From Marsupella aquatica (Eukaryota > Plantae > Marchantiophyta), in the NCBI GenBank assembly GCA_973895155.1, contig OZ316892.1, positions 19,321,457 through 19,385,456 of the forward strand: a stretch of DNA of 64,000 nt, given 5' to 3'. The notes beneath the pieces were generated by a model. The model was not told the DNA's origin. It saw nothing but the letters and a program-made list of their open reading frames with translations, and did no database searches. How positions within the stretch are numbered: position 1 is the stretch's first letter; each line of letters opens with the position of its first letter. Of this stretch, positions 18,042 through 62,671 are shown one piece after another. The translations under genes and the position numbers were made by a program.

Positions 18042-18069
18042 CTCTCCCTTAACTAGCATAAGGGATCAC

Positions 18070-37767: not shown

Positions 37768-38186
37768 GCATGGACACCCTTCCCGTTTGCTACTAAGCCA
37801 TTTTTGTGGTAGCTTCAATGGTCTTTAGATGCAAGAAGCTTGAGGTAGCTTCAGATACAATGTAGCTTCATTGGAAGGCAAGGAGGCCCATGATACAGAT
37901 CTACACTGCAAGGTCACAACTCGACTTGCAACTTGTACTGGAAACATTTATGAATAAAAAGCAAGTTGATTCACTATGTTCTGATGTATAAAAGTTATTC
38001 ATTCTGCTGGATACTACCTTTAGTTTGTACCTTCAATTTTGGAAGACATTGTCCACATTGTCTTTGAACCACACTTAGCCATTTTTCCAATGATAGGATA
38101 TTTTGCTTCAAGAAGCCATTTGAGCAGGGGTAAATGGTGGATGTTGTGGGTTTTGGAAGACATTGTCCATATTGTCTTCGCACCAC

Positions 38187-38389
38187 TGTGGTGCGTTTCC
38201 CAACCCTCTAACCCCAAGAACAATCCACAACCGGCTATGAACCCCTACTTATGGTCGGCTTACATGATGGTTTGGCTGTCATTCGGCTTGGAAACGCGAT
38301 CTACTCTCGATCCACACTATGTTGGACCAATTCTTTCACTGGGCTTGACTTAGTGAAATACCTAGTACAACCCATCGTTGGAATCGCAA
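38187..38389 (-). mobile_element. LTR terminal (U5) fragment related to the giant LTR at 52674
   Basis: About 160 bp from TGTGGTGCGTTTCCCAACCCTCTAACCCCAAGAAC closely matches 52674-52832, then diverges. Confidence 0.85.
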
Positions 38390-41300: not shown

Positions 41301-42574
41301 GTTCTCACCTTAATAGCCGCTATTTAAAATGAGAAAAGCAATGCCACCGACGGGAAAAGTTGCCGAATTGTACCGGCACAGTCTACAGCTCCAGCCCCTA
41401 GGCAGTGGTGGACCTAGCCACCCAGCGCCCTCACCAATCCTAGCACTTGCGCATAAGTGCCCTTGGTGCCCGAACGCCTCCACGGAATACCTCAAGCAAG
41501 CATCCAAGTGCCTCTAGCACCACCTGCGGCCCCTCCCATACAAAGCCGCACTTGCTCACCTACACGACCGCTACTCAACGGTCCTCATTGTCTGCACAAG
41601 CAACCAAGCACCTCGGTAAGTAACCCCTCCGGATCTAGAACTTGCTAAGTCTAGCATCCTAACTCAAGCTCAACAGACGTTGGTAAATAGGTCAGCGATA
41701 GGTCCTCCCGATGCCATAAGCCGGAACCAGAACCCACGCTCACTGTCTGTCTAGGACAACTCCGTCCTTGGGCGCGGCCCGGATTCCCCCTCGTACCTAT
41801 CCATCACCAACTGACCGCCTTGACTTCAGGACATGCTCATGGCCCAAATAGCGTAGCTTGTCCTAAAGCTTGTCTCAACACGCCGGGACCAGAACGGCCC
41901 CGACTCTAACACCCACTCTCGGTTCGCCCCACTGATGGTCTAGGGACCGAGCACCCGTGGGACTCAGCCTCCATACCTACTTCGCCTTGCCTCCCCAACT
42001 CAAGCTCCCTTGGGAGGCTGAACGCGGCTTGGCTGCTGTTCGGCAGGATTTGGCAAGCTCTAACACCCGCAAATCATGAGAACCCATGGCACCCCCAGAC
42101 CTAGCTGAGCTCAAGAGGGCGTAGCCCTCTTCAAGAGCGCCCTAACGCACCTAAGAAGTCCCCCAACGGACTTTCCGTTGGGAAGATATGGTCATTTCCG
42201 TTTGGCAGTTTCCCTTAGTGTCGCGATCGCAGCGGTTCACGACTTCGGCTCGGCCATAGCCCCCAGGGAGACACCACTCCCCTCATATATACTTTTGGAG
42301 ACCTGCCACCCCCGGACCAACTTTGGTCCCTAAACATTTGGCCCCCAACCCGGATCCCATCGCGCATAATGGGCGCGCCACCAACTGGCAACGCCCATAA
42401 CTCTCTTGATAGGCATCCGCAAGCGGAGTGCCTTAGCCCGTTGTGACCGGGCCGACCCCATGCTCATGCCTAGGCCCTCAGGTCTGATTTCTGCTTGGGA
42501 CCCCCAACCGGCCCATCCCGGATCGGGCCACAACTTGCGCCCCAAGCGTCCGTTGCCAATGGCGTCAACTCCAT

Positions 42575-45500
42575 TGTGGTGCGTCCCATGGCTCCCTAAA
42601 CCCAAGAAACCCCCCAGCTCAAGCCGATTCCCGCAGGTTTCGTGCTTGGCGAGGCCGTTTCCGCGGCTTAGCGGCATGGGACGCTGCTAACCTTCTACTA
42701 CTACTATTAACATTTTACACACATATACTGGACAGATCCTTCATCGGGTCATGAGATACGTAGCCGGCCTAATATAGGCCTTCCCCTGTCTTCCCCTGTC
42801 TTCCCCTCCGTCTTGTTAGGTATGTTTGGATTCCGCCGCCGGAATGATCCCCAATAGGCTTGGTTAAGCCGCTAAGACCTCTCTCAGCTCGACACATCCA
42901 ACTCTCACTCCCCTGCTTACTTTCCTTCCTTCTGTTGATGTGGGCACTCTTCACACAAGTTAATGCGACACACAAATAGCAAAATGACTCATTCTGACTG
43001 AGTCATACCATGCACTTGCCATACAAACAGTACATCTCATACACAAGTTCTGCGAACTAAGCCGTGAGGCCAACTCTATTCAGCTCTTAGGCATGAGGAA
43101 ACATGAATATACACAAGGGTCACTGTATGACTAACCGAGAGCTTCTCGTACTACTTGATCCCAGCCCGGCTGGTGCAAACTAAAAACTTGCTAAAGAAGA
43201 GGCCCTGAGCTCCCCGCTGCCCAGGTACTTATCCTGGTAGTGGATCCGCCATTCTTTGCATCGTAAGCCTAATCTACTTAACAGTAATCTACTTGCCCGA
43301 ATCTACCTATGTACAGCAAGGCAGGAGCACAAGTGTTGCTCCTACCAGTGGGACCGCAATCCCACTAAGCTAAGTGTCAGGGCCACTCCTGGTTCTGATC
43401 CTAATCCTAAACGTGGAGATCCGTGCCCGCCCTGCCCACTCACGCCTCCTCCCTCCACGTCCGCCCTCCCTAAAAGGAACGGCGCCCTTGCACCGTCACG
43501 ACACCGGTGGTGGATCCTCAATGGACGCCCCCAATACTTCCTCCTCAGCCACTGCCGTTGGCCCGCCTACTGACAGATTACCTGCCCTTGACCGAGTCAA
43601 CTCTCCATCGGCCTGACTGGGTCCACCTCCGGCTTCAGCCTCGACACCGGCCTCGGCAATACCCACGGCTTCGGCCTCAGCCACTCCCACGGCTTCGGCT
43701 TCAGCCAACCCCACGGCTTCGGCTTCCCCTTCCCCTAGGGTAGTTGGATCCTTAGCCGTGACCCTGTCTGGGGTCGGTGCTGGGTCTACCTCCTTGATCA
43801 CCACGGCCTGTGAAGTCGTATTACTCCTTGACCCTGAAGGTTTCCGCTTCTTCTTTGTTGGTGGCTCGGCAGCTGGTCCCTTCCCCTTCCCACTTACCTC
43901 CGGCACTGGTGCAGGTGGCGCGGCTTGTCCTTCGGCAATTACCACCCCTGGTAACTGGTTTGTCCCAACAGGAGATGGACCTGCTGCAGCTAAGCATTTA
44001 AATACTGTGGCTTGTTTCTTCAGCCGCTCTGTTTGGTTGTCGGCCCGCCGCTGTAGGTTCTCCATCTTCCTCGTGATTTCCTCCAACTCCTCTTGGGTTT
44101 CATCCAGGTCCTTACGTGCCCCCTCCAGCTCGTTTTTGGCCTCCTCCTGCTCCCTGTGGGCTTCCTCCAATTCCTTCTTCAAGGTAGCCCTCTCCTCCTG
44201 GGTTGCTCTTAGCTCCTTGTCGAGCTCTGCAATGATGACAGACTCCATCTGGTTCATCTTGGCGTAAGTCTGTTCGAGCATCTCGTCCTTCTCCCTTAGG
44301 TCGGCCTTGAAGCTGGCCGTCAGGGACGCAAGCTCCTGCTGCAGCGCCATAATCCCTTGATAGGATTTCCCTAACTCGACCTCCTTCTGCTCAAGGGCTC
44401 CGCGGATTTTCTCGAGCTCCCCTTTCAACGCCCATTCCTTTCTTTGGGTCTCCGCCATGGCCCGGCTGTTGGCTGTTATGTGGGCCTCCTCTGTATTCTT
44501 CAGCTCTTGCTTCCACTTTTCCCTTTCCTTGATCGTGTCGGCCAACTCTTCCTGCGTCTGAGTCAGTTTATCCTTGATATTCTGATTATCAGCCTGCGCG
44601 GCGTCCAACTGCCCCTGCATGATGTTCAGCTCATGTCGTTTAATCCGCAGTTCATCTTGGGCTTTCTTGGCCGCCCTTAGATCTTCAATCTCGGCTTCCA
44701 TCCTCCTAAGCCGCCGAATGACCTCGTCCTTCTTGCTTCTCTCTAAAGCCACCGCTTCTTCTAATTGGTGCTTCTCCAACTGCTCCCTATGGAAAAAGGG
44801 TCCTACCTCCAACTCCTCTCCAAAGATGCCGAGCGCAAGTTCCCCACACATCTCACCATACTCCATGGCTCTATTCTTAGCGTAGGTGGAGTAAGTAGAA
44901 GTGATCGGCATCGCCCATCGTGGCCTCTGCTCCCAAGCCGTCCTGCGGATCTCTTCAATCGTGGCTAGAGGTTTGCTTCCTTTTTCGGCTAGCCGCCTGA
45001 TGTCCTCCGGCCAATCTCCTCCTGGTAAATCCTTTTCCTTAGCCAGGGCGGCCTCTTCCTCCTGCTTGATTCGCTCCTGAAATTCCTGCACCGTCTGTTT
45101 TATGCCGTCGAAGCTCGGGGGAGCAACATCTGGTGGGGGAGACTCAGGGCTACTCTGCTGGTTGGGGTCCCCTCGCACTACCCTTGGAAGTGTGGGGACA
45201 AACCGGCCACAGGTCCTTACTCCTGGAACGTGATGGTCCGACCCATAGCCGGAATTATCATGGCTGCAGTCCTCCACTGCCTCCTCTACCTCTTGGACGT
45301 CCGGCTTCTCCCTCTCCTCTTCGTTGGTAGGAGCTTCAGGCAATTCTGCCTCAAATTCGGAGCTTGAGGTTCCCACGTACATTCGAACACCTGGCTTGGA
45401 TTCCGGCCTGATTCTCTCCTTGTCTCCAGCAAAGGGGTTTTCTTTTGTGAGCCGGTGTAGGCCTACCTCTGTAGTAGTGTCCTGCATTGTTGCCGTTGCC

Positions 45501-47234
45501 GTTGTTGTTGCCGATGCCGATTTCTTTTCTTTCTCCAGTAGTTTCAGCAGACTCTGCATGCCTGGTTGCTGCATCGGCAAGTCTTCCTTCCTGGGCCTAA
45601 ACACCTGCTCGATCGTAGGACTAACAGGTGGTTGAGGCTTCTCAGCCAACGGCCTCGGCGTTGGAGCTTCCTCGGGTGCCCTTACCTGCAGGGGAAGTAC
45701 CGGGGCAAAAGTCTGACCTCTGGCATACCGGCACAACAGCGGCATGTGATAGCCAAGCCGCGACACGCTCCCCATGCCGATTACCTGCTGCTCCTCCTTT
45801 AAGATCTTCTTCAATTGGTTGAGGAGGTACCCGTTGTAGTCCCGGCTTGGGTCTGGCCTTTCTGCCAGATAGACCTGTGCCTTGCCGATCTCTGCCCTCG
45901 GCAAGTTACAATGCATGGTCACCCGCAAGAAGTCGATCATCTCTCCTATGTGCGGGTTGGTGCAGGTGTTCCGGAAGAAGCCATTCTTCGTTGATGGCCC
46001 GGGGAACGACCGGAACTCCTTGTCAGGCAAGGTCTTCCTGGTATCAACTTTGGTCTTATTGCCCATCGGCAAGCCAAACACTTCGGCAATCACCTTGGGA
46101 GTAAGATAGAAATCCTTCCCATATATCCTCGTGCAATTGGTCTCGGGTTCCCATGACCCCACGAATTCTAATAGGTCTGACTCCGGTACCTCCGGCTTCA
46201 GCCATGGTAATCTTACAAAGGCCTCCAAGCCGGATCCGGCCATGAAGCCTTGGTACTTCTTGGTCTGCATGGCCGTAAAGCATGCATCCTCCTCCCGTGC
46301 AAAATGTAGTTGCACCTCCACCGGTAGGGTTGCCGCCCAGCCCTTCCAGGTGTCATCCCTGGTTGGAATGGCCTTGATGGGATTGACCTCCTCCTCTTCG
46401 GCTTCTCCCTGCCTCCTGCTCTGCTGCTCGGCTGGCTTCTTTGGTGCCGCCGACCTCGTTCTTTTTGCCGGGGTGGCTTCATCGTTGACGGCTCCCTTCC
46501 TCTTCATCTCTGCTGCCGTGGAGGTTTCTCCTAGCACCGTTGCCCGGGTCCACCTTTCCGTGCTACCCTTTAATTCCCAGTGTATGTCATTGCAGTTCTT
46601 GATGGCCTCTCGGATGCCGACGACGCTGTCTTTGCAAAACAGAAGATCGTCGAGTTGATTGGAAGTAGGCGTCCACAGGAACTCGTCCTTGATGAGTTCG
46701 CCTCCTAAGAAAGCCGTCTTCTGTAGCTCCCACAATCGAGCGAGCTCCTGCCGTTCTCGAGCTGCCCTTTCTGACTCCTCGTCCTCGTAAGTCTTGATGT
46801 ACTCAGTTGCCCGTTCGAACAGGCATCCCCAGAAATGTGCCGCTTGATTGACGTTGCTCATACCCTCCTTAGGTTGATCGTCGGTATCTACTCTCTCCCC
46901 GAGTGCTTGCCTAAGCAGCTGACAGTAGTTGGCCTCCCGTAGTCGTCTGCCTAGTTCGTGCTCGCAAATGAGCCACCATCTCCTGCAAGCGCTCCTTACC
47001 CCTCTCCTCTGCCGGTCCTTCTTCCCGTTGATCCTTCCTAGCCGCCGACGCTTAACGCGCCCTAACCCTAATCGGGTTTTCACCCTCAGCCTTACCTCCG
47101 GCCTCTGCCCGGGTTCCATGGTTGCCCCTAATTGTTTATATTTTCCTTGTTTTGTCACTATACTAAGGTGTTCCTAGGGTGCCTTCCTGCTTTACCCACT
47201 TAACCGGCCAAGTGATTCCTGTCTAGGCATCACA
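42575..47234 (-). mobile_element. Giant solo LTR, copy 1 (4660 bp), containing an intact ORF
   Basis: Termini TGTGG...TCACA; perfect 5-bp TSD TCCAT (42570-42574 and 47235-47239); near-identical inverted copy at 54048-58712; homologous to the PBS-adjacent LTR at 52674-62296. Confidence 0.93.
43496..47119 (-). CDS. LTR-encoded 1207-aa protein: basic N-terminus, plant-transposon-protein-like domain, acidic linker, long coiled coil, NLS-like motif and acidic tail
   Basis: Uninterrupted 3624-bp ORF from the first ATG (MEPGQRPEV). Homologous ORFs in both other LTR copies. Heptad-rich region about 44790-44010. KKKRK motif. Confidence 0.88.
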   Translation of the reverse strand: MEPGQRPEVRLRVKTRLGLGRVKRRRLGRINGKKDRQRRGVRSACRRWWLICEHELGRRLREANYCQLLRQALGERVDTDDQPKEGMSNVNQAAHFWGCLFERATEYIKTYEDEESERAARERQELARLWELQKTAFLGGELIKDEFLWTPTSNQLDDLLFCKDSVVGIREAIKNCNDIHWELKGSTERWTRATVLGETSTAAEMKRKGAVNDEATPAKRTRSAAPKKPAEQQSRRQGEAEEEEVNPIKAIPTRDDTWKGWAATLPVEVQLHFAREEDACFTAMQTKKYQGFMAGSGLEAFVRLPWLKPEVPESDLLEFVGSWEPETNCTRIYGKDFYLTPKVIAEVFGLPMGNKTKVDTRKTLPDKEFRSFPGPSTKNGFFRNTCTNPHIGEMIDFLRVTMHCNLPRAEIGKAQVYLAERPDPSRDYNGYLLNQLKKILKEEQQVIGMGSVSRLGYHMPLLCRYARGQTFAPVLPLQVRAPEEAPTPRPLAEKPQPPVSPTIEQVFRPRKEDLPMQQPGMQSLLKLLEKEKKSASATTTATATMQDTTTEVGLHRLTKENPFAGDKERIRPESKPGVRMYVGTSSSEFEAELPEAPTNEEEREKPDVQEVEEAVEDCSHDNSGYGSDHHVPGVRTCGRFVPTLPRVVRGDPNQQSSPESPPPDVAPPSFDGIKQTVQEFQERIKQEEEAALAKEKDLPGGDWPEDIRRLAEKGSKPLATIEEIRRTAWEQRPRWAMPITSTYSTYAKNRAMEYGEMCGELALGIFGEELEVGPFFHREQLEKHQLEEAVALERSKKDEVIRRLRRMEAEIEDLRAAKKAQDELRIKRHELNIMQGQLDAAQADNQNIKDKLTQTQEELADTIKEREKWKQELKNTEEAHITANSRAMAETQRKEWALKGELEKIRGALEQKEVELGKSYQGIMALQQELASLTASFKADLREKDEMLEQTYAKMNQMESVIIAELDKELRATQEERATLKKELEEAHREQEEAKNELEGARKDLDETQEELEEITRKMENLQRRADNQTERLKKQATVFKCLAAAGPSPVGTNQLPGVVIAEGQAAPPAPVPEVSGKGKGPAAEPPTKKKRKPSGSRSNTTSQAVVIKEVDPAPTPDRVTAKDPTTLGEGEAEAVGLAEAEAVGVAEAEAVGIAEAGVEAEAGGGPSQADGELTRSRAGNLSVGGPTAVAEEEVLGASIEDPPPVS

Positions 47235-48327
47235 TCCATTGGCCTTGGGCCCAAGAGGAGCTCACTCCCAAGCCCTCAGAACTCAAAGCCCCTCCGACGG
47301 TCCGGACGGCCATCCTTGAGCCCGGCCCATTTCTCCTTGACCCTACCAGCCATAGGCTAGTCCAAGTCCTTAGTGTGTGTCCCCAGCTTGGCCCCTTGCC
47401 TCGCTAGTGCCACGTCTCATTGCCCACAACTCTCCCCATGCTAAGTCCTCCCCGGATGGCCTATCCGGGCCTGGACCATAAGGGAGCTCGGCGTCGGAGT
47501 TAGCGACGCGCGGAGCTAAGTGTTAAGGTAGTCGAGTTCCGTGACTTGGGCCCTCACTCCGTGTAAAAGAAGTGGACCCCCCTGCCATCGGGCCCTTTTC
47601 CTGTTTACCCCTTGTTATTTCCATTTTACTATTAAAAGTTCCCTTATTACCGGTAATAATTATAATTATTAGTTCAAAATGAATAAAAATTACCCTTTGA
47701 GCATTTGCACGTCCTCCATGTATTAGTTAAGACTGAGGGCCAAGGGGCTCCAGCAAAGTAAAAAAAATCCGCCGCGTCGCCTTCACTTCGCGTCAAGTGC
47801 CAATCCCGGGCTCAAAATGACCGCCTCGCCGTGATCAAACCGTTGAGCCGTAGCACTTCGCGTTTCTTCCACCAAGTTGGACGTCACGAAGAGAAACCCG
47901 GTTCAGATGTGAACAAGCTCCATAGCTTGTGAAAAAACCTGAACGCCTCCGTCACTTGTCATGTCTCACTCGGTAACAACTCGACAGCAACTCAGTTACC
48001 AAAACAACCAGCTCGCTTCAACCTTCAACTTGAGCTATAATGTGCGATCCCTCCCGCACCGCACAGCTCACACCGTTGAAAAATGCAAACTCAGGTCTCT
48101 CCCCCAAATACCGTCGAATATGAATAAACCCTGAACGATGCAAACTTCAATTCCTCTGCACCACGGATACCGATCAACAAGTTCTAACCACCGTTAGAAA
48201 GCCCTCTTACTAACCTATCCGCTCAGCCACACATATTCGAGTTTCATGCGACTAAACTCCGAATGTACCATCGAAAATGAACGTTGGAAAAACCTATCAC
48301 AAAAAAACCTTGTCACCTCCCAGGCAT

Positions 48328-48339
48328 GCTCTGATACCA
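48328..48339 (-). promoter_or_regulatory. PBS (tRNA-iMet) of another LTR element
   Basis: Minus strand TGGTATCAGAGC, 2 nt from the LTR end ...CTCAACA. Confidence 0.85.
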
Positions 48340-48341
48340 CT

Positions 48342-49159
48342 TGTTGAGCATAGACAACATTCGTAAAGGCAAGCCCATGAACCATCCAACGCACAAGAGT
48401 CGACACAGAGAGATACGTGGTTCACCTCCACATGAGGCTACATCCACGGGAACACACAAGAGCTTTACTGCACTCTAGGCCGACCGGCCATACCAAGCAT
48501 CCACAGCGCAAGCTCTTCCTATCTCTCAACTAGCTCCATAACAATGAGCCTAAGTTCCACCAGGGTCTGGCATCAGCCCTGGCTATATGCGCAACAGCAC
48601 TAGCGCTAACATTAGCTAAGTCCTAACCCGAGTTAGACTAACTATGGTTAGCTCATGAGTCACAAGAGTAGAGCAATATGTAACAATACAGAGGCTAGGA
48701 GGAACTCCTCTTGGAGACTCATGCTCATTCTTATGGAGCAACTTGGAGAGAGAGGAAAGCTTGAATGTGCTATGGAAACTTGGTGTGGCCGAAGTGCCTA
48801 AGTAGAGCTATAATAAAGTCTCTTGTATTCTTGTGTATGTAGCTTCAAGGAGGTGAATCACATATCTATTGTGTTGGTGCATTGCTTGCTGGTTGCTTGA
48901 GTTCTCATGTGTATGTTGCCAGCACTTTTCCTTACATATCTCGTTTGCTGGCCAAATCCTACCAAGACAAACAACCAAACCACATTCAGTTGGGGGAAAG
49001 GTTTCCCCATTTCGCACAAATTAACAGATCCAACTCTCACAAATCTCACTAGGGAGTGGGACAAATTAATTTGCCTTGTCAAGCTCAGTGCCCGGCTCAG
49101 TGCTTGCTGACCCTATATCCTTGGAGAAACCTACCATTTTATGATCAAATGTGTTAACA
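48342..49159 (-). mobile_element. 5' LTR of an LTR element whose internal region (below 48327) shows no recognisable coding
   Basis: TGTTGA...TTAACA termini; adjacent PBS; U5-like TACGTGGTTCACC..CTACATCCACGG. Right boundary tentative; partner LTR not found. Confidence 0.65.
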
Positions 49160-50143
49160 AGAAAGAGCATACCATAATTTTGGTGGAAAGCATGATTGAG
49201 GGGTACATAAAAAGGATCTCCGAAGTCTCCACCAAAAGGAGTGAGTCCTCATGAATTTTGCAATAAATTGGGGGGTGTTACACTCAAGGGCCAAGATGTA
49301 GAAGGACCAAATCAAAGGCTGGATTTGAATATCAATAAAAAATGCATTAAGTATTCATTTGGACCGGTTGAAGTACAGTCTAGATGCATAATTCCTATCT
49401 TGGACTTTAGCAAGGACGATGTATAAATGTTCTCCTTGGATCCCGTGACATTGAATAGAGCAAGTTGCGGCTCGCAGTGTGTTTGAATATAAGGACTCAT
49501 AGTCGATGCTTTTGAAAACAAGGACTAAAGTGGGCAAGGACTCATAGTCGATGTTTGAAATTGATCGCGGATTTTGTTCTAAGCACAAGTTAGGCTTGAA
49601 TTGTCTTGGGACGGGCAGGCACCAACAACGAAGGGCTTAGGGGTTAGGGATGGCTATGGTGGTCGATTACTCATTGAAGGAGCTTGCGCCATACACACGC
49701 AATGTGAGAGTTGAGTTGTTGGGGATGGGGCATAGTTGGATAGTTGAAGCTTTGGATCGCGAGTTGATGATTCATCGTGGAAGTTTGATTTACAGCAATG
49801 CATCTTGGAGATTGCCCATAGGAGGAGCACTGTGATTGAAGCGTTGGTGGACCTTAGGCGATTGTTGAGCTTTGCCATGGTGCTCGCAGGATCAAATGAG
49901 TAGGCAAGTTTAGAAGTATTGGCCTAGTATCAGGTAGAATCTGAATGCTCAGATGCTCCGCATCCCGCTCAATACCTCCCAAGTTCTGTCTAGTACTTGA
50001 TGCGGTGCCTGATATCGGACGGCCAGTCTTGCTGAAGTCCACGATGCCCTAGCAAGAGAGAGATCAGAAAGGCGAAACCTTAGCAGACGCAAGTCCTATT
50101 GTAATAGGCAGCAACGGATCACCCATGGACAATTGATTGCACA

Positions 50144-52613
50144 TGGTGGTTTGTTTGGTTCTAGAGGTGTGCTTGGTGAAGTCAGTGGTGACACACTTTT
50201 GTCCTCCACTGTTTCCTTTGAAGCGGAAACAATTTCTTCTTTCATTCGCTTGACAGCTCTCTTGATATCCTTCTGGAGTGCAACCTCATTCTCGACCTTT
50301 TCCAGCTCTACCAACTGCTCCTTCACACTAGCTGTGACTGCCAGAAAAAATAAACTGGGATGCGTTCGATCAAAATCACTATCCTGGGAAGGACTGGGAT
50401 CACCAAGTATGACTTGCGGGTCCTCAGTGACAGGGGCTTTGTCGCTAGAACCCGAAGACGTGGAATCAGACGCATCTTCCTTCCATGGCTTCTTTTTCTT
50501 GGTAATCCCCTCCCACCTTTGCTTCCTTCTGGTGGATCTAGTGGACACACGGTAACAATCGGCATCAACCTCTTCTTCAGAATAAGTGGACAGGGCGTCT
50601 GCTTCATTGTCAGAAGGTGCAAATTCCCCTCGTGCTTCTTCACGCCATCCTAAGTCAATATGATTTACCTGGGCTCCTCCTGGCATAGTTCCTTCTAGCA
50701 GTACCTTTGGTGCGGGTTTGACAGGTACAGCAGCCATCCCGGCTAACCAAATAGGGCATTGGGTAAGTATATGCCCTTCTCCTTTGCAACCCATACAAAG
50801 CTTGACTGGCTGACCATCCGCCTGCTTCCTTGCATTGGTGCACTCCCAGGAGAAGTGACCTGGTTGACCACAGTTGTAGCATGCTGCAAATCTCTGAACA
50901 TTTGGTTGTGGAGGTGTAGTTGGATTTTGAATGATGCGTGGATACATCTCCCTTGCATTGGTTCTCAATGCTCCCCACAAAGAGGTGGGTCGGTTAGCCA
51001 AATCTCGGGCTCCGACCTCACTAATGCCGAACACACTATCCGCGGCATCTCCAAGTATGTACTCCACCTCCAACTCTCCTATTGTTCCCTCGGTTATCAA
51101 TCAAACATGCTTTGTACCACGCTTTGGACAGACATCCTTGTGATGTCCGGTGGTATAACAATGAGCGCACCATACTGAGGTGTCATCGGCTGCCTCCCTC
51201 GTCTTTGGCTGGGAGTTGGCTAATAACATCTTTAACTGCTCTGTGATCGCTGTCAATTGATCTGGAGATGCTTTCTTAGGATCAACCTTGGTTCTCACCT
51301 TCTCCACAATGTTATCCTTCTTTTTGAATTTCTTTTTTTACTCTTTTCATCATCCTCTGAACTGGAAGATGTTTCACCCTTACCGGTAGCATCCTCAGAG
51401 CTGCTACTCCCCTCCCTGGCTTTCTTGGATTGCTTTTTCTTTTCTTTTTTCTTGCCTGATCCCTCTTCAGAAGATGAGTCCTTGCATTTTTAGTGTTTTT
51501 TCCTGCTCATGATATCTGCATTGATGTAGAGCTGAATATCATGGATTACTTCGGCTAGAGATTCCGGATTCCCCTTCCGAATCGCAAAACTCATCTTCTG
51601 TGGTAAAGCATTAACCAACTATTGCAACTGCATTTCATTTGATGCATTGGTCTTGGTTTGCCGTACCAATTTGTGGAATCGTTGCAAAAACTTTCAGAAA
51701 GACTTGTTCTCCTTGAATTGAAGCCGTCCTAGCTTCAACATTGCCAATTCGGATGTCCCAATGGGACGGAATTCTTTGACAAATAGTTGCTTAAAGGTGA
51801 TCCACTCATTCTGCTCTCCGGGTTCCAAATTATAGTACCACGGTCGAGCCTCACCTTTAAACAACCCAGGTAAGATTTGCATCTTGATAGCAGACTCTCC
51901 ATTAGCCGTTGCGGTCAATTGCAAGATTGAGGGGGGCAAAAGGACGCAAAAAGGATTAGCTCAAAAAGGAGAGAAAAAGGACTCAAAGATCATAAGATTT
52001 AGTTGAACACCACTTCCATACAGGTTTGACACACTTCCAAAATTATTGTGCACACTTCCAAGAAGATTGGGACTTCCTAAAAGCCTGGACACACTTCCAA
52101 AGACTTGGCATGCAAGATCTCACCATCCAATCTCAACAAACTAATCCTAGCCATTTGGTGTAACACCTTGTCCACCCCTTGTAAATTGGAAAGGACTAGA
52201 ATCCTTTTGGTGGAGAAATTGGATATCCTTTTTGCCCCCCTCAAGCTTGCAATTGACCTTGCCGTACCATCAAACTCCTCAAGCCAGTCATCCGGATCCT
52301 CCTCATGCTTTCCATGAAATGCCTTATAATGGATTTGTGATCTTTGGCTGAGCCATGGTGTTGCTCGACCACCAAATTGTGGGTCTGGCTCACCCATTCC
52401 GAGTACTGGTGAACTGGGTTGGGTACTGGGCACTTTGCTACTTGACAGATCCCCTTCTTCACTCACCAGTTCCTCTTCAAAAGCACTTTGCGACCCGCCG
52501 TTGCGGGTTACAACCTTCACTTTCCGTGACTCCTTCCACTTTTGAATTTGCTGCACCCGTGATTCTTCCCTTTGTGCTGCTTGACCTTCCCTTGGTGTGA
52601 ATTCGTTCATCAC
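50144..52613 (-). pseudogene. Ty3/gypsy gag with three CCHC zinc knuckles, truncated before pol
   Basis: FHGKHEEDPDDWLEEF, LFKGEARPWY...W..FKQLFVKEF (retrotransposon gag pattern). Knuckles CAHCYTTGHHKDVC, CYNCGQPGHFSWEC and CMGCKGEGHILTQC. Stops, frameshifts and a MITE insertion. Confidence 0.9.
51913..52258. mobile_element. MITE 1 (346 bp) with 4-bp TSD
   Basis: TIRs GGTCAATTGCAAGATTGAGGGGGGCAAAAGGA / TCCTTTTTGCCCCCCTCAAGCTTGCAATTGACC; TSD TTGC. Removing it restores gag frame FDGTATANGE. Confidence 0.92.
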
Positions 52614-52651: not shown

Positions 52652-52669
52652 CCCCTCCATCTAGCGCCA
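52652..52669 (-). promoter_or_regulatory. PBS, tRNA-Asn type as in Tat-lineage gypsy elements
   Basis: Minus strand TGGCGCTAGATGGAGGGG, 4 nt after the LTR end CACA. One mismatch from TGGCGCTAGAAGGAGGG, the complement of the plant tRNA-Asn(GUU) 3' end as I recall it. Confidence 0.8.
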
Positions 52670-54047
52670 AAAATGTGGTGCATTTCCCAACCCTCTAACC
52701 CCAAGAACTATCTACAACCGGCCATGAACCCCTACTTATGGTCGGCTTATGGTGGTTTGGCTGTCATTTGGCTTGGATACGCGGTCTACTCTCGATCCAC
52801 ACAATGCTGGACCAATTCTTTCACTGGGCTTGCAAATTGTGTATTGCTGAGACGCCTAATTCTCAATTGACTTCATCGGGTATGTTTGTATTCCGCCCCC
52901 GGAATGTACCTCTACGGCTTAATCTCTTAAGTCGGCTGAAGGTTTTTCTTAGACCGGCTCAACCCACACTTTAACCAACAAAACACTCTCAATCCTCACT
53001 TTTCTCTCAGAGTTTGGTTTGGCAGTCTCCAATCAAGACAATGCGATCGTATAGCTTCGCAGTCGCTCTATCTGACTGAAATTGATCAAGCGACAAGTAT
53101 CACAACACACAATGCCATGACTGTAAGCATCTGCAAACTAGGCATCAAGGCCAACTCAATTCAAACAATTGCACAGAAATGGAAATTGTGGTTTACTGAT
53201 AATCCGCGATCTAGATCTAGCCGAGAGGTTATGCTAGTAATACTGACTTTACACTAGAGTCTTGACTAAGAAAAAGCCTCCCGAGCCACGCTGCACAGGT
53301 TTTTATCCTTGCAGCGCGTCCAGGGGAATCGGCGGAAATCCAAACCACAAATCATGGCCTTCCACCGTGAAATCTAGCTAATTAACTAACACCTAACATA
53401 TTTTGACTTAACCTGGAACCTTGCGGGAACCAAGCATCTAATACAACGTAAGCCGACAGGGCGCTACTTGCCCTGTCCCATCCTACAACGGCCGCGCCCT
53501 TCTGGCCCAAACCCTTCTCCTACCGCCACGTCCTCCTTCCAACTGATGATTGGCCCTCCTTAATTGTCAGATGACTGGCGATAGGCCCGAATCTTCCGAC
53601 TCTGCACCTTCTCCTGCCATCAGCTCCGGCTTGATCCCTTTGGCTTCCTCGACCTCGGGTTCTGATTTATTGGCCCTGGCATTGGCAGTGGCATCTTCCT
53701 AGGAAACGGCTTGGATAGCGTTGGCCTTTACTTCCTCAATCAAAGCTTGCTCTCCAATCCGTTCGGTATCGATCTTCCATGGCTTTACATTTTGGTAGTC
53801 CATGGTGGCTGTACCGGTGTCTGAACCTGTTACCGCAGCTCCAAGTTCATTGGCATTACTTATCTCTACATACCATGGCTGCCTTCATAGCAACAGTCCC
53901 ACAAATGTGAGCAGCCATACTCTCAACCTCCTCTAGAGTGGCCTTGAGAGGTATCCCAGTAGTACTTGCTGGCCCCATGAATGTTTTGGCCACATCTGCT
54001 ACCAACTGCATTGCCTTACCCCCAGTTACTCTTGACAATATAGATGT

Positions 54048-57000
54048 TGTGATGCCTAGACAGGAATCACTCGGCCAGTTAAGTGGGTAAAGCAGGAAGG
54101 CACCCTAGAAACACCTTAGTATAGGGACAAAACAAGGAAAATATAAACAATTAGGGGCGACCATGGAACCCGGGCCGAGGCCGGAGGTAAGGACGCTGGG
54201 GGTGAAAACTCGATTAGGGTTAGGGCGCGTTAAGCGTCGGCGGCTAGGAAGGATCAACGGGAGGAAGGACCTGAAGAGGAGAGGGGTAAGGAGCGCTTGC
54301 AGGAGATGGTGGCTCATGCGAGCACGAACTAGGCAGACGACTATGGGAGGCCAACTACTGTCAGCTGCTTAGGCAAGCACTCGGGGAGAGAGTAGATACC
54401 GACGATCGACCTAAGGAGGGTATGAGCAACGTCAATCAAGCGGCACATTTCTGGGGATGCCTGTTCGAACGGGCAACTGAGTACATCAAGACTTACGAGG
54501 ACGAGGAATCAGAAAGGGCAGCTCGAGAACGGCAGGAGCTCGCTTGATTGTGGGAGCTGCAGAAGATGGCTTTCTTAGGAGGCGAACTCATCAAGGACGA
54601 GTTCTTGTGGACTCCTACTTCCAATCAACTCGACGATCTTCTGTTTTGCAAAGACAACGTCGTCGGCATCCGAGAGGCCATCAAGAACTGCAACGACATA
54701 CACTGGGAATTAAAGGGTAGCACGGAAAGGTGGACCCAAGCAACGGTGCTAGGAGAAACCTCCACGGCAACAGAGATGAAGAGGAAGGGAGCCGTCAACG
54801 ATGAAGCCACCCCGGCAAAAAGAACGAGGTCGGCGGCACCAAAGAAGCCAGCCGAGCAGTAGAGCAAGAGGCAGGGAGAAGCCGAAGAGGAGGAGGTCGA
54901 TCCCATCAAGGCCATTCCAACCAGGGATGACACCTGGAAGGGCTGGGCGGCAACCCTACCGGTGGAGGTGCAACTACATTTTGCACGGGAGGAGGATGCA
55001 TGCTTTACGGCCATGCAGACCAAGAAGTACCAAGGCTTCATGGCCGGATCCGGCTTAGAGGCCTTTGTAAGATTACCATGGCTGAAGCCAGAGGTACCGG
55101 AGTCAGACCTATTAGAATTCGTGGGGTCATGGGAACCCGAGACCAATTGCACGAGGACATATGGGAAGGATTTCTATCTTACTCCCAAAGTGATTGCCGA
55201 AGTGTTTGGCTTGCCGATAGGCAATAAGACCAAAGTTGATACCAGGAAGACCTTGCCTGACAAGGAGTTCTGGTCGTTCCCCGGGCCATCAACGAAGAAT
55301 GGCTTCTTCCGGAACACCTACACCAACCCGCACATAGGAGAGATGATCGACTTCTTGCGGGTGACCATGCATTGTAACTTGCCGAGGGCAGAGATCGGCA
55401 AAGCACAGGTCTATCTGGCAGAGAGGCCAGACCCAAGCCGGGACTACAACGGGTACCTCCTCAACCAATTGAAGAAGATCTTAAAGGAGGAGCAACAGGT
55501 AATCGGCATGGGGAGCGTGTCGCGGCTTGGCTATCACATGCCGCTGTTGTGCCGGTATGCCAGAGGTCAGACTTTTGCCCTAGTACTTCCCCTACAGGTA
55601 AGGGCACCCGAGGAAGCTCCAACGCCGAGGCCGTTAGCAGAGAAGCCTCAACCACTTGTTAGCCCTACGATCGAGCAGGTGTTTAGGCCAAGGACGGAGG
55701 ACTTGCCGATGCAGCAACCAGGCATGCAGAGTCTGCTGAAACTACTGGAGAAAGAAAAGAGATCGGCATCGACAACGACAACGGCAACGGCAACAATGCA
55801 GGACACTACTCCAGAGGTAGGCCTACACCGGCTCACAAGAGAAAACCCCTTTGCTGGAGACAAGGAGAGAATCAGGCCGGAATCCAAGCCAGGTGTTCGA
55901 ATGTATGTGGGAGTCTCAAGCTCTGAATCTGAGGCAGAATTGCCTGAAGCTCCTACCGACGAAGAGGAGAGGGAGAAGCCGGATGTCCAAGAAGTAGAGG
56001 AGGCAGTGGAGGACTACAGCCATGATAATTCTGGCTATGGGTCGGACCATCACGTTCCAGGAGTAAGGACCTGTGGCCGGTTTGTCCCCACGCTTCCAAG
56101 GGTAGTACGAGGGGACCCCAACCAGCAGAGTAGCCCTGAGTCTCCCCCACCAGATGTTGCTCCCCCGAGCTTTGACGGCATAAAACAGACGGCGCAGGAA
56201 TTTCAGGAGCGAATCAGGCAGGAAGAGGAGGCAGCCCTGGCTAGGGAAAAGGATTTACCAGGAGGAGATTGGCCGGAGGACATCAGGCGGCTAGCCGAAA
56301 AAGGAAGCAAACCTCTAGCCACGATTGAAGAGATCCGCAAGACGGCTTGGGAGCAGAGGCCGCGATGGGCGATGCCGATCACTCCTACTTACTCCACCTA
56401 CGCTAAAAATAGAGCCATGGAGTATGGTGAGATGTGTGGGGAACTTGCGCTCGGCATCTTTGGAGAGGAGTTGGAGGTAGGGCCCTTTTTCCATAAGGAG
56501 CAGTTGGAGAAGCACCAATTAGAAGAAGCGGTGGCTTTAGAGAGAAGCAAGAAGGACGAGGTCATTCGGCGGCTTAGGAGGATGGAAGCCGAGATTGAAG
56601 ACCTAAGGGCGGCCAAGAAAGCCCAAGATGAACTGCGGATTAAACGGCATGAGCTGAACATCATGCAGGGGCAGTTGGACACCGCGCAGGCTGATAATCG
56701 GAATATCAAGGATAAACTGACTCAGACGCAGGGAGAGTTGGCCGATACGATCAAAGAGAGGGAGAAGTGGAAGCGAGAGCTGAAGAATACAGAGGAGGCC
56801 CACATAACAACCAACAGCCGGGCCATGGCGGAGACCCAAAGAAAGGAATGGGCGTTGAAGGGGGAGCTCGAGAAAATCCGCGGAGCCCTTGAGCAGAAGG
56901 AGGCCGAGTTAGGGAAATCCTATCAAGGGATTATGGCGCTGCAGCAGGAGCTTGCGTCCCTGACGGCCAGCTTCAAGGCCGACCTAAGGGAGAAGGACGA

Positions 57001-58712
57001 GATGCTCGATCAGACTTACGCCAAGATGAACCAGATGGAGTCTGTCATCATTGCAGAGCTCGACAAGGAGCTAAGAGCAACCCGGGAGGAGAGGACTACC
57101 TTGAAAAAAGAACAGGAGGAAGCCCAGAAGGAACTAGAGGAGGCGCGCAAGGACCTGGATGAGACCCAGGAGGAGTTGGAGGAAATCACGAGGAAGATGG
57201 AGAACCTCCAGCGGCGGGCCGACAACCAAACAGAGCGGCTGAAGAAACAAGCCGCAGTATTTAAGTGCTTGTCTTCATCAGGCCCAACTCCAATTGGGGC
57301 AACCAAGTTACCAGGAGTGGTACTGGCCGAAGAAAAAGCCGCGCCACCTGCACCAGTGCCGGAAGTAAGTGGGAAGGGGAAGGGACCAGCTGCCGAACCA
57401 GAAAAGAAGAAGAAGCGGAAACCTTCAGGGTCAAAGAGTAATCCGACTCCACAGGCCGTGGTGACCAAGGAGGTAGACCCAGCACCAACCTCCGGCATGA
57501 ATACGGCAATAGATTCCGATATCATCAAGGGTGGGGGTGGTGCGGCCCAAGCCGAACTACTCGGTAATGAGGCCGGTATCCCAGATCCGCCTCTTGAGCA
57601 GGCCGGGGAGACCGTAGCCGAGGCTGAGGCCGTAACCGATTCCCGAGCCGGTGCCGACGCCGATGGTGGACCCAGTCAGGCCGATGGAGAGTTGACTCAG
57701 TCAAGGGCAGGTAATCTGTCAGAGAACGAACCTACGGCAGTGGCTGAGGAGGAAGCGTTGGGGGCGTCCATTAAGGATCCACCACCGGTGTCGTGACGGT
57801 GCAAGGGCGCCGTTCCTTTTAGGAAGGGCGGACGTGGAGGGAGGAGGCGTGAGTGGGCAGGGCGGGCGCTGATCTCCAAGTTTAGGATTAGGATCAGGAC
57901 CAGGAGCGGCCCTGACACTTAGCTTAGTGGGATTACGGTTCCACTGGTAGGAGCAACACTTGTGCTCCTGCCTTGCTGTACATAGGTAGATCCGGGCAAG
58001 TAGATTACTGTTAGGTAGATTAGGCTTACGCTGCAAAGAATTAGGCGGATCCACTACCAGGATAAGTACCTGGGCAGCGGGGAGCTCAGGGCCTCTTCTT
58101 TAGCAAGTTTTTAGTTTGCACCAGCCGGGCTGGGATCAAGTAGTAAGGGAAGCTCTCGGTTAGTCATACAGTGACCCTTGTGTATATTCATGTTTCCTCA
58201 TGCCTAAGAACTGAATAGAGTTGGCCTCACGGCTTAGTTCGCAGAGCTTGTGTATGAGATGTACTGTTTGTATGGCAAGTGCATGGTATGACTCAGTCAG
58301 AAGGAGTCATTTTGCTATTTGTGTGTCGCATTAACTTGTGTGAAGAGTGCCCACATCAACTAACAGAAGGAAGGAAAGTAAGCAGGGGAGTGAGAGTTGG
58401 ATGTGTCGAGCTGAGAGAGGTCTTAGCGGCTTAACCAAGCCTATTGGGGATCATTCCGGCGGCGGAATCCAAACATACCTAACAAGACGGAGGGGAAGAC
58501 GAGGGAAGGCCTAGATTAGGCCGGCTACGTATCTCATGACCCGATGAAGGATCTGTCCAGTATATGTGTGTAAATGTTAATAGTAGTAGTAGAAGGTTAG
58601 CAGCGTCCCATGCCGCTAAGCCGCGGAAACGGCCTCGCCAAGCGCGAAACCTGCGGGAATCGGCTTGAGCTGGGGGGTTTCTTGGGTTTAGGGAGCCATG
58701 GGACGCACCACA
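54048..58712 (+). mobile_element. Giant solo LTR, copy 2 (4665 bp), inserted into LTR copy 3
   Basis: Termini TGTGATG...CACCACA; TSD GATGT/AATGT (4/5); reverse complement of 42575-47234. Confidence 0.93.
54163..57796 (+). pseudogene. LTR-encoded protein, copy 2, disrupted in its N-terminal quarter
   Basis: Same protein as 43496-47119. Small indels near 54195 and 54317; CGA>TGA near 54545; CAG>TAG at 54860-54862. The rest (over 940 codons) is open. Confidence 0.9.
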
Positions 58713-59794
58713 AATGTCGGCTTTGGCACTTCAGTATTTCCGGCTACCACGCCACTAGTGGGAGACCGTCCAATTGGTGATCCGTGCCCGGCTTCGGCAT
58801 ACTTTCACAACTTCTCTATTTGATTATCTGCACGCCTCTACAAGCCGATCATCTTCTCTTTGGCCTCCTCCAGCTCTTGGGATAAAAATCCTCAACTTCC
58901 TCATTAAGCCAATGCGCTTCATCCTTGGCCGCCTTGAGCTCCTTGTTTAAGATCTGCACGATCTCAAACTCCTTTTCATCCCAAGCGACTCTCTGGGAAT
59001 CGTTGATGATTTCCAACTTTGTGACCTCATCCATCCATGCCTGCTTTGTCCGAGTTATCTCCTCCTACAGCTCCTTGCATATCTGTTGAACTCGACTCAG
59101 GTGATCATTGGCCGCAGTGCACGTGGCGTCCTCATGCTTCTCTCGCATGGCCTCCAACCGGTCGAATAACTTGTCATACTTCCTTTGGGCTTCTGCCAAG
59201 GCTTTCTCGCTCTGGGTGGCTTGGTCCTTTGCCGTCTTTCTGAGCCTCTAGACTTGCCGATTTAGACCCTGTACCTCCGCTTTTGAATTGGCTAACTCCA
59301 GCTCTACTTTCATCAATTTTTCTTTGATCTGTTGGTTATCCAATTGGTAGTTTTCCAATTGGTTGTTTGCCACCTCCAATTCCTGCTGCTTAGCCAAGAG
59401 ATCCTGTTGAGCTTGTTGATCAAACTTTGTCTTAGCAACTTTGGCTTCCATGGAGCAAAGCCGAGCGATTACCTCCTCCTTCTTTAATTGCTCCAACATC
59501 ATTGCCTCCTCCAGCCTTGTCTGGTCAGCCATTTCCTTTCTAAGAAATGGTCCGGATTCTAACTCATTGCCAAAGATTTCTAAGGCTAGCAGTCCACACA
59601 TGTCTCCATACTCCCTAGCCCAATCCGTCGCATATTTTGACCTGCCAGGTGATACTGGCATTTGCCAACGAGGCCATTTCTCCCAAGCTTCTGCCCGTAA
59701 CTGATTGAAGTCAATGAGAGGCGCGACCTGCTTCTCACTAAGCCATTTTATTTCCTCCGGCCAATCACCGCCTGGTAGCTGCCGTTCTTGTATG

Positions 59795-60137
59795 ATCAAT
59801 CTATTCATTAAAAGTGAATTATTATTCAATTTATGAACATTTGGGTAACAGAAAGTGTACATTTGGCCTTCAAAAAGTGTACAATTAGGCAAGAAACAAA
59901 GTTGATTACCATCAGATGTACCACCATGTTCATCATTTGTAAATAAATTAGGATGAGACTGCTTCTAGTCAAGATCATTTTTGTTATCTCAAGTTTACAA
60001 TTGATCATTTAGGTGTAGAGTATTATACCATAGTGTACCTTTTGGGTTTCAAAAGTGTATATTTAGAGACCAAAAAGTGAACATTTAGAGGCCCAAAAGT
60101 GAACAAAATACAATACACTTTTAATGAATAGGGTGAT
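59795..60137. mobile_element. MITE 2 (343 bp, AT-rich) with 4-bp TSD
   Basis: TIRs ATCAATCTATTCATTAAAAGTG / CACTTTTAATGAATAGGGTGAT; TSD TATG; internal AAAAGTG(T/A)ACA repeats. Removing it restores ARNDIQERQLPGGDW. Confidence 0.92.
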
Positions 60138-62671
60138 TATGTCATTTCGGGCCCTCCACTCATCGAGTTTCTCCTTGAAACCTGCCTTGCCTTCCTTCAT
60201 TCGGTCAAATTCCAATGGTGTCACGTCCGGTGGCAGAGACTCCAGGGTTTTTTGATCCTCCAGCTTGCCATAAAAGACTGAGGGAAGTCTTCTACAAAAC
60301 CTTCCCAACGTTCTCACTCCTGGCACCGGTCTCTCCCCATGATTGACATAATCATTGTCGTAGTCATCCACATTAACCTGACTACCGAGCATGCTAGCCT
60401 CTTCTGCAAAGCCCCCAATCTCCTCCACTGAGTATTGTTGGGCTGCCACTGGTTGATTTACCTCCACCAGTTCCTCCACTCGGGCCCGGCTAGAAGCTCT
60501 AAGGACTGGCCTCTCTTTACTACGGCCTCGGCTTCCGTCTTTTGACTCTGAATCCACTTGCTCATCTCATTTCTTTCTTTTTTTGGCAGTCATTTTCCTC
60601 TCTACTAGTTGAATACCTGCATATGGGTTATTACGAGTAGGCCGTCGCAACGGATTTCTCACCACATCATATGTTACCACCTCTGGTTCCTTGAGAGGGG
60701 AATTCTCCCATCCCTGGACTGCCTATATTGCCGGCCTCTTCTCTTGTCGTCGCTTGTTCAAGGGCAGCTCGTCCTCCTCCTCCACTCGTGCTGTAATCGG
60801 CATCCTCTCCTGTAGTGGTAACACTGGTGCAAAAGACTGGTTTCTTGCATATCGGCAAAGTAATTGCAGATGGTACCCTAGTTTGGATACCGCTCCTTCC
60901 CCAATACTCTACTTCTCTTCATTCAATGCCTTCTTTAACTACATTAAAAGATAGCCAATGTAGTCTCGGCTTGAATCGATATTCTCCACCAAAAATACCT
61001 GGGCCTTGCCGATCTCTGCTCTCGGCAATGTATAGTGTAGCGTGACTTGTAAGAAATCAATCAACTGCCCCACATGTGGATTAGTGCATTGATTTCTAAA
61101 GAACCCATTCTTAGTAGAGGGCCTTGGAAATGATCGGAATTGATTATCTGGCAATGTCTTTCATTGCTCCACCTTAGTTTTATTCCCCTATGGAAGAGCA
61201 AAGACGGCTTCAATTAGTGTTGGCGTTAATTCCACCACCTTTCCATACATCAGTGTTGTGTTAGAAGAAGCCTCCCAGCATCCTATGAAGTCTAACAAAT
61301 CTTTGTCTGGTATGTCAATTAATCACCATGGTAACCGAATGAATCCCTCTAAGCCGGTGTCGTTCATGTATCCAAAATACTTGTTATCCTGGATAGCACA
61401 GAAGGCCTCATCTTCTTCTCATGCAAACTGTAGTTGTAAGTCGGCAGGTAGCTTATCCACCCAACCCGTCATAAACTTATCCTCCACTGCCCTATCATGA
61501 ACTGGCACGGCTTCAGCCTTGGCCTGCCTCTCCGATCGATTCCGCTTAGCTAGTGTTGCAGACGCCGAACTACCTTTACGCTTCATCTCTTCAGTTCCTG
61601 AGAACTCTCCAAGAATGGCTTCCTTGGACCAAGCCAAAGTGTGATCCTTCAACTCCCACACCGGCTGCCCAGCGTTCTTAATTGCCTCCCAAATTCCAAC
61701 GACTCGATTCTCTCTGATCAGCAACTCATCAAGCTCGGCACTGGTGGGAATCCATACGAATTTCTCAAGTACCTCCTCCGTTCCCACAAACGCCATCTTA
61801 TGAATTCCCCATAACCGAGCGAGCTCCGCCCGTTCCCTTGCTGCTCATTCTGGCTTGACGTCTTCGTAAGTTGGTATGAGCTACCGTGCTTCTTCAAGCA
61901 AACAGCCCCATAACTTGGCCGCCTGATTCACCGTGGTCATTCCACCAAAAGAAAAAGGAGCTTGAACAATTCCCTAACCACCTCCCTTGATCAATCGGCA
62001 GCTGCTTCCGCGGTCCTAGGTTGATCGAATAAGCAAATGAGCAAGTGTATAGAATGTCGGTCCCCTCCCTGCGAAGCCGCTTCCCTATGGCTTGCCTGAT
62101 TAAGTCTGGATTAGGTCATAACCCTAATCCTACTCAATTGTGACCGTTGGATCTTACCTGATCGCAATCCTCCTCATAACACATTGCAATCGGCTTTGGT
62201 CTTTATTCCTACCTTATACGATTTAGCCATTATTTTTATTTAGCCATTATTTTAGGCTTTTACCTAAGTACTTTGTGATCCTGGCAAGGCATCACAAGAA
62301 TTCGTGCGGAGGCTTCCCAAGAGGCTGCCAACATCATAGTGAATGCAAGTACACAAGCTACTAGCATCCTATAGTCTACACAATTACAATGTGACAAATT
62401 GACACAAAGAAGACAAACTCTCCGCAATCGCATAGGGCGTCAAGAAGCACGTCTTCGGTCCTTAGATGGGCAACTTCTTGGTGAGAGCATGCATGGCCAA
62501 ACTTCAGAGCTGCAGCAAGAGAGTTCAGCTTCGAGGCAAGCAAACTGTCAATCCTCTGCTTAATTTAGAGCACGAGATGCTCAAAGAAAGTGAGCAGCAT
62601 ACTGGAAGAAAAAGGGTAATACACGCACAGAGGCTTGGTAATGTGGGTCTGCTGGTGATTTAGAAGACGAA

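Follow-up and report, generated by a model that had tools for sequence, protein, structure and literature searches.

A selected gene within a probable retrotransposon long terminal repeat of the liverwort Marsupella aquatica, with a predicted VANC21-like domain

We analyzed a 64,000-nucleotide stretch of the Marsupella aquatica genome (Marchantiophyta; assembly GCA_973895155.1, contig OZ316892.1, positions 19,321,457 to 19,385,456; hereafter the window), and in it a 4660-bp repeat, unit A, that contains one long open reading frame (ORF). The explanation that accounts best for the data, to which we assign a probability of about one half, is that unit A is a 4.66-kb long terminal repeat (LTR) of a Ty3/gypsy retrotransposon and contains a selected gene for a DNA-binding protein of the VANC/PMD fold that counters host silencing. 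The parts of this proposal differ in strength. With high probability unit A is the LTR of a retrotransposon, and only marginally less probably it is an LTR that carries a functional gene; a VANC21-like fold of one domain is probable as judged by a structural model, and an anti-silencing or transcription-supporting DNA-binding role would, given that fold, be reasonably likely. The gene-in-LTR architecture is very likely real and absent from the literature searched.

Unit A begins with TGTGG and ends with ATCACA, and is flanked by a perfect 5-bp target-site duplication (TSD; 5/5 positions); on re-reading, the termini (TGTG...CACA), the length and the TCCAT duplication were as the initial annotation had described them. 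In public sequencing runs, empty-site contigs join position 42569 to 47235 and skip exactly 4665 nt, that is, unit A plus one copy of the TSD, so the ends of unit A are true insertion ends. Such contigs were found in three of four runs (X1, n = 3; X2, n = 6; X3, n = 2; X6, n = 0). Parts of unit A are present in 15 of the 17 public runs listed (10 studies), six of which contain at least half of its words; no RNA run among those listed contained unit A words. The insertion lies in a multi-copy host element. A terminal-repeat retrotransposon in miniature (TRIM) or large retrotransposon derivative (LARD) was considered and rejected as its identity, as self-BLAST of A shows no terminal direct repeat inside it.

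Two related units lie in the same window (Table 1), and TG..CA termini with a short imperfect inverted repeat are found in all three. In unit B, the second solo copy, two stops early in the ORF and a frameshift in its leader interrupt the frame. Unit C is more diverged (66–68% nucleotide similarity to A in the window self-comparison), and spans 9.6 kb only because B and a 343-bp terminal-inverted-repeat element lie within it; without both it measures about 4.6 kb and is co-linear with A. The earlier claim that a homologous unit at 52674–62296 with the same termini directly precedes a PBS (primer-binding site) and gag held up, with a TGG tract after 4 nt and then a PF03732 gag, this match being obtained with stops read as X. 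The PBS-like tract behind C differs from a Met-type PBS at 48329–48340 and is therefore not of the tRNA-Met type; it is putatively of the tRNA-Asn type. A PBS that is not complementary to tRNA-Met is a criterion for Ty3/gypsy elements of the non-chromovirus (Athila/Tat) group (PMC6317226), and the same source gives a tRNA-Asn PBS for 12% of Athila elements.

The same tract recurs at other loci. In run X1, which may stem from the source of the window itself, 40 contigs depart from the reference exactly at 42575; of the 21 positions nearest the junction, their majority line agrees with the PBS flank of C at 17, the best score of all window positions on both strands (next best, 15). Since the flank of locus A differs from this PBS-like line, these contig ends represent other loci. 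The family has TG..CA ends, a TSD within the 4–6 bp range, and a PBS 0–5 nt past the 3' end, followed by gag, as expected of LTRs. X1 contigs also link the unit A terminus to internal A positions 43429, 45171 and 45738, which indicates that further copies have landed within members of the same family, like B within C.

The ORF was stated to be single, intact and to occupy about 78% of the unit at some 115 and 920 bp from its ends, and we measured 3624 of 4660 bp, with 115 and 921 bp on either side; a frame of 1207 codons would remain open by chance at this base composition with a probability of about 1e-24. The open frame is real, but the 1207-residue protein proposed for it is probably 86 codons too long. 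Between A and B, codons 87–1040 differ by 52 synonymous and 41 non-synonymous changes, corresponding to a ratio of non-synonymous to synonymous rates (dN/dS) of 0.21 over 947 codons, whereas codons 1–86 differ by 1 synonymous and 7 non-synonymous changes (dN/dS 2.3) and by indels of 3 and 2 nt. Met1 was accordingly rejected as the conserved start, codons 1–86 being without purifying selection. Homology between A and C begins at residue 86, with Met in both; taken together with the conservation from codon 87, this makes a protein of about 1121 residues likely. At the greater depth, tblastn aligns the A ORF to C over residues 86–686, 692–986 and 1010–1069 at 37–45% identity, with 14 stops in the aligned parts, and differences fall at 31, 24 and 62% of first, second and third codon positions (374 gap-free codons). 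The ORF from codon 87 is, as judged by these sequence comparisons, under purifying selection at two divergence depths. The C-terminal 167 codons (1041–1207) change fast (dN/dS 0.68).

Sequence variants and relatives point in the same direction. Synonymous changes make up 14 of the 27 common ORF variants listed (343 further variants lie beyond this list), and the 12 best-supported small indels listed (13 more lie beyond the list) all fall outside the ORF. A phmmer search of 1.84 billion representative proteins returned 23 relatives (best E 3e-49), mostly over residues 243–471; a source species was named for four of the 20 relatives looked up, in each case the liverwort Calypogeia fissa. Word-index protein searches with the ORF gave no match. 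The selected ORF lies wholly within unit A, a solo copy with its own TSD, and the claim that the gene survives in solo copies is upheld.

One domain of the protein yielded a structural lead. An AlphaFold2 model of residues 240–490, built from a 24-row alignment, reached a moderate pLDDT of 68 and a pTM of 0.65. Compared with 48,161 PDB representatives using VIA-align, it matched a single chain at Z of 5 or more: 9lnk_A, VANC21 bound to its target DNA (Z 9.4, root-mean-square deviation (rmsd) 4.2, 215 residues, 9% identity), the next chain having Z 3.0. The first match in Foldseek was the sister entry 9lnj_A, with a TMq of 0.49 against 0.15 for the next entry and an E of 1.1 that alone is not significant, and re-alignment again gave Z 9.4; the fold match covers 213–215 residues. 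Language-model features of residues 250–480 lie nearest to Transposase_32 (PF20167) and Athila ORF-1 (PF03078), with values of 0.87–0.88 (0.85–0.88 over all such comparisons) that serve as leads only. Based on the gap to the next match, the coverage of the whole domain and the agreement with these plant-transposon leads, we consider it probable that residues 249–478 adopt a VANC21-like fold. Searches by sequence gave no counterpart: the ORF, four sub-regions and the 23 relatives had no Pfam match at curated thresholds, including PF03078, PF20167 and PF10536; a PDB sequence profile search had no match (best E 0.17); and Foldseek against viral structures returned 0 matches at E ≤ 0.001. A single-sequence AlphaFold2 model of residues 87–490 (pLDDT 37) was too poor for a fold assignment of residues 87–240. 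The protein further contains four basic motifs resembling nuclear localization signals and a long coiled-coil-like region (Table 1). An env-like membrane protein was rejected, there being no transmembrane segment and a highest 19-residue hydropathy of 1.09.

Sequence signals around the ORF suggest that it is expressed from within the LTR. The only TATAAA of unit A stands at LTR nt 95, and occupies the same position in B. Downstream, all three units have a donor AGGTAAG at the same place, LTR nt 138, followed by a telo-box-like TAGGGTT (nt 165/168/171 in A/B/C), a branch-like motif (nt 260/263/253) and an acceptor CTAGG (nt 281/282/278). AGGTAAG occurs eight times in the whole window, and its recurrence within 10 nt in the diverged C has a chance probability of about 0.001. 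Splice-type motifs thus keep their positions across A, B and C, despite a similarity of only about 66% between A and C, and we predict a leader intron ahead of Met87; because this set of signals is conserved, a separate promoter for the gene is likely at the left edge of the LTR, with a start site in the first 140 nt. The 921-bp part behind the ORF is 2.0% diverged between A and B and remains alignable to C (score 84, against −154 for the best shuffle). It contains a TGTA cluster at LTR nt 4122–4210, 380–470 nt past the stop codon, which we take to fit the region of a 3' end in plants. By its signals, each LTR resembles a transcription unit that is complete in itself.

Where the ORF falls within the LTR bears on how the element would be expressed. 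The initial annotation placed it in sense orientation in U3; that it lies wholly inside the LTR is borne out, and U3 itself we favor slightly, R appearing unlikely and U5 considerably more so. The TATAAA and the intron-like signals agree with a gene in U3 that has a promoter to itself, but they agree as well with an ORF located in R or U5. In the latter arrangement, which we regard as a serious but less probable alternative, the left-edge promoter would be the sole promoter of the element, U3 would measure only about 110–130 nt, and the gag-pol RNA would be spliced from the nt-140 donor to an acceptor before gag, the ORF corresponding to the first ORF of an Ogre-like element, shifted to a place upstream of the PBS. 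Consistent with this, the sole TATAAA of A is the one at nt 95, no conserved TATA is found in the last 921 bp of the LTR, a U-rich acceptor-like tract with AG lies between the PBS and the gag ATG, and the plant mobile domain (PMD) is present in 57% of Ogre elements (PMC6317226). On the other hand, TATA-less promoters are common, the gag acceptor is a single candidate motif, and under the standard replication scheme the arrangement would require either that the strong-stop DNA be 4.5 kb long or that a poly(A) region lying 4 kb away from the promoter be read through.

For the proposed U3 gene, a promoter in the first ~130 nt of the LTR would transcribe the gene, the leader intron would be removed, translation would start from Met87, and the RNA would end within the last 921 bp. 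Every LTR, paired or solo, would then be a self-contained expression cassette supplying the protein in trans, and the coiled-coil protein would likely bind DNA of its own family, keep the family transcribable and counter host silencing. According to PMC5735166, VANC makes the transposon family that encodes it lose methylation in a sequence-specific manner; PMC13547354 relates VANC structurally to the PMD protein MAIN, and reports that VANC and the Athila domain oligomerize via coiled coils; and binding to DNA motifs and opposition to Polycomb silencing are reported for MAIN/MAIL proteins (bioRxiv 10.1101/2024.09.27.615353). The most economical origin would be an Athila-like 3' accessory ORF that became enclosed in the LTR once the polypurine tract (PPT) shifted upstream of it, such a shift placing the ORF in U3. 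More tentatively, at somewhat less than even odds, the LTR of a bryophyte gypsy lineage may have taken up, in its entirety, a VANC-like gene for sequence-specific anti-silencing together with the promoter and intron of that gene.

Alternatively, the gene may be real and reside in the LTR, but encode a structural or an RNA- or chromatin-tethering factor (particle, nuclear import, integration targeting) that reuses the PMD/Athila-ORF1 fold. Extra ORFs of Athila, Ogre and Retand are described as being of unknown function (PMC6317226, PMC11963269); A and B are both nested in other LTR elements and some contigs connect the end of A with positions in its interior, which hints at repeat targeting; and the non-coding LTR parts revealed no target motif. 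However, the sole solved structure that matches is that of a DNA-bound anti-silencing factor, and nesting is frequent in repeat-rich genomes without any targeting. We consider a job of this kind rather unlikely.

Several observations weigh against a silencing-countering gene in a gypsy LTR. On the side of function, no 7- or 8-mer is over-represented as a target motif in four non-coding LTR segments (all P ≥ 0.12), a common fold by itself shows no function, and MAIN-type PMD proteins are reported both to promote silencing of transposable elements and to oppose Polycomb. The fold model is of moderate quality (pLDDT 68 from 24 rows; Foldseek E 1.1; identity 8–12%; rmsd of about 4), and by the tool's own warning Z values of 7–8 are typical of models lacking a clear match, with higher values for helical ones. 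Regarding expression, C has no exact TATAAA at LTR nt 95, only a near match, and the predicted first exon is very short. As to the LTR assignment, the X1 loose-end majority line has an agreement of only 0.37 over 40 contigs and comes from one run only; four X3 contigs leave at the same position without a PBS; and the C-type fragment at 38187 has no TSD in common with C (rejected as a proven partner, its flank ACCAC agreeing with the outer flank of C, AGAAT, at 2/5 positions). Of the earlier statement that the units are LTRs, the TG..CA ends, the 5-bp TSD, the adjacency of C, PBS and gag, and the PBS-like flank at other A-family ends stand, but no paired-LTR element, PPT or pol of this family was seen in the window.

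Further searches for the missing parts were negative. No reverse transcriptase (RT), RNase H or integrase family was detected in 46 of the 112 frames of at least 70 codons in 38000–64000 (most of the others lie inside A or B or overlap scanned frames), so the element of C appears to be cut off behind gag. No 3' LTR start was found in the window, no loose-end contig at 47234 among the rows listed (1475 further rows lie beyond that list), no tRNA gene in the window, no Rfam family in 38000–64000, and no match for gag in a word-index protein search. Related loci were absent from metagenome contigs by junction pattern, from the same contigs by protein (31 pattern matches, 0 confirmed) and from viral contigs.

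These gaps, and the fact that both A-family copies in the window are solitary, each with its own TSD, would suit a stand-alone non-autonomous mobile element with a short terminal inverted repeat (7/8 at the unit ends), a 5-bp TSD and a helper gene, C lying beside a PBS by chance; VANC genes are, moreover, DNA-transposon genes. We judge this very improbable: the PBS stands at the canonical distance behind C and is followed by gag, this PBS recurs in register at A-family ends elsewhere, LTRs normally have TG..CA termini with an imperfect inverted repeat of short length, and no transposase domain was found. Least probable of all is that the element captured the ORF only recently, or carries it as a passenger in decay, with no role for the element, for interrupted B and C copies and a fast-evolving C-terminal tail are set against purifying selection at two depths, 23 related proteins elsewhere (the named ones from a liverwort), and the variant and indel spectrum of the ORF.

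Table 1. Features of unit A and related sequences in the window (window coordinates)
Feature	Position	Strand	Basis
Unit A, solo LTR, ORF uninterrupted	42575..47234	-	4660 bp; TG..CA ends, TSD, empty sites
TSD copy TCCAT	42570..42574	.	flank of unit A
TSD copy TCCAT	47235..47239	.	flank of unit A
TATAAA, candidate promoter element (LTR nt 95)	47135..47140	-	only TATAAA in unit A; same position in B
Predicted 5'-leader intron, 145 nt, GT..AG (LTR nt 140–284)	46951..47095	-	sequence signals: donor, branch-like site, acceptor
Longest ORF, 1207 codons from first ATG	43496..47119	-	stop-free frame, 47119–43496
Likely true coding region from Met87, 1121 aa	43496..46861	-	dN/dS and start of homology with C
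Globular domain, residues 249–478, predicted VANC21-like fold	45686..46375	-	AlphaFold2 model, structure comparison
Long coiled-coil-like region, residues 784–1045	43985..44770	-	heptad scan; sub-threshold ATG16 coiled-coil match
Non-coding 3' part of LTR, 921 bp; likely 3' untranslated region, poly(A) region and U5	42575..43495	-	conserved in A/B/C
Unit B, second solo copy, nested in C	54048..58712	+	93.8% to A over full length; TSD GATGT/AATGT (4/5)
Unit C, diverged decayed copy acting as 5' LTR	52674..62296	-	same terminal motifs as A; ORF remnants 37–45% identical to A
PBS-like tract, begins TGG, 4 nt past C end	52652..52669	-	same tract in register at loose A-family ends, run X1
Broken gypsy-type gag (capsid, zinc knuckle), downstream of PBS	50096..52610	-	PF03732 E 3.9e-11; PF00098 E 1.1e-7
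C-type LTR end fragment, 161 bp, truncated on inner side	38187..38347	-	92.5% to 52674–52832

Among known systems, the closest in element type is Athila (Ty3/gypsy, OTA), which resembles the unit A family in its gypsy-type gag, non-Met PBS, 5-bp TSD and large LTR, and in a sense accessory ORF combining a globular domain with a coiled coil, the language-model features of the unit A domain resembling PF03078/PF20167. It differs in that the extra ORF of Athila is described between pol and the 3' LTR, whereas the unit A ORF lies within the LTR and has no Pfam match at threshold. Ogre, with ORF1 (PMD, PF10536), and the rice elements Retrosat2/RIRE3, with ORF0, likewise have giant LTRs (3–5 kb) and an extra ORF upstream of gag. 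The Ogre ORF1 is separate from the LTR. PMC13547354 reports the PMD as VANC-related in structure, and ORF0 of Retrosat2/RIRE3 is described apart from the LTR in PMC3485330, whereas the unit A ORF is located in the repeat, upstream of the PBS, and persists where only a solo copy is left. For Tat elements of liverworts, the description in PMC13468544 is by RT and aRH only.

VANC21 of VANDAL21, a Mutator-like DNA transposon of Arabidopsis, is similar in predicted fold, coiled coil and nature as a transposon-encoded accessory protein. In contrast, it is 8–12% identical to the unit A protein; it is the gene of a MuDR element, not of a retroelement LTR; VANC is described as dicot-specific, whereas unit A comes from a liverwort; and tandem target arrays were not found in the non-coding parts of unit A. 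As modeled, the unit A protein would work like a VANC-type accessory gene product, but it is not a member of the VANC family. Retroviruses provide another parallel: MMTV sag, HIV nef and foamy virus bet/tas are accessory genes that overlap or lie inside the LTR and are duplicated with it. They share with unit A an accessory gene in the LTR, the U3 placement of the unit A ORF being presumptive, but comprise 200–480 codons and belong to animal retroviruses, whereas the unit A ORF has about 1120 codons and its own predicted promoter and intron. Finally, in Retrozyme NbRZ1, an LTR element of the plant Nicotiana benthamiana, the transcript driven by the LTR possibly encodes a polypeptide (PMC12029980); it is small and non-autonomous, with hammerhead ribozymes (no Rfam family was found in 38000–64000) and no large conserved domain. 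The initial annotation knew of no described plant example of an LTR-borne gene, and the titles and abstract openings searched likewise showed none among plant elements.

The usual view holds LTRs to be non-coding and solo LTRs to be inert remains, and annotation tools seek extra ORFs in the internal region only. A selected gene of about 1100 residues in an LTR alters the meaning of a solo LTR and the RNA organization that the family requires. Should the proposed role be correct, solo-LTR formation, normally a means of host disarmament, would spread a counter-defence gene, with solo LTRs supplying the factor in trans; no earlier case would exist of an anti-silencing protein encoded by an LTR retrotransposon of plants, and the extra ORFs of Athila and Ogre would gain a testable function. 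The protein class has known relatives and its function is a prediction; what is new is that the predicted fold of residues 249–478 matches VANC21 alone among the 48,161 PDB chains. This suggests that the VANC/PMD fold may be used by transposons well outside flowering plants, and the link would make the role of plant gypsy extra ORFs testable with a single soluble 230-residue domain.

Some features of the units stand apart from these arguments. In the non-coding 3' part, a strongly conserved block with a short palindrome (42819–42847 in A, 52881–52908 in C) is a candidate packaging or R/U5 signal. The last 170 codons of the ORF (43496–43990 vs 57280–57700) are 16% different between A and B, elsewhere 2–5%, and A has a seven-residue Ala/Glu/Gly repeat there; the fast-changing tail suggests a mosaic origin or rapid evolution. 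Insertions resembling miniature inverted-repeat transposable elements occur at 59795–60137, in the ORF of C, and at 51913–52258, in gag, with 22-bp terminal inverted repeats matching at 20/22 and 21/22 positions.

Unit A is itself inserted in a GC-rich, very high-copy element (40640–42574 and 47235–49282) with an LTR-like end at about 48343–49282, a tRNA-Met-type PBS at 48329–48340 (minus strand) and several kb without a recognizable gag, its second LTR lying outside the window; this host is possibly a non-autonomous LARD-like element. Elsewhere in the window, decayed gene-like sequences with introns and internal duplications lie at 33000–37800 and 62400–63700, frames near 62642–63582 having no Pfam match, and two decayed Ty1/copia elements stand back to back at 17800–23037 and 23125–27343, the LTRs being about 240 bp long and 98% alike in the first, and 105 bp long and 93% alike in the second.

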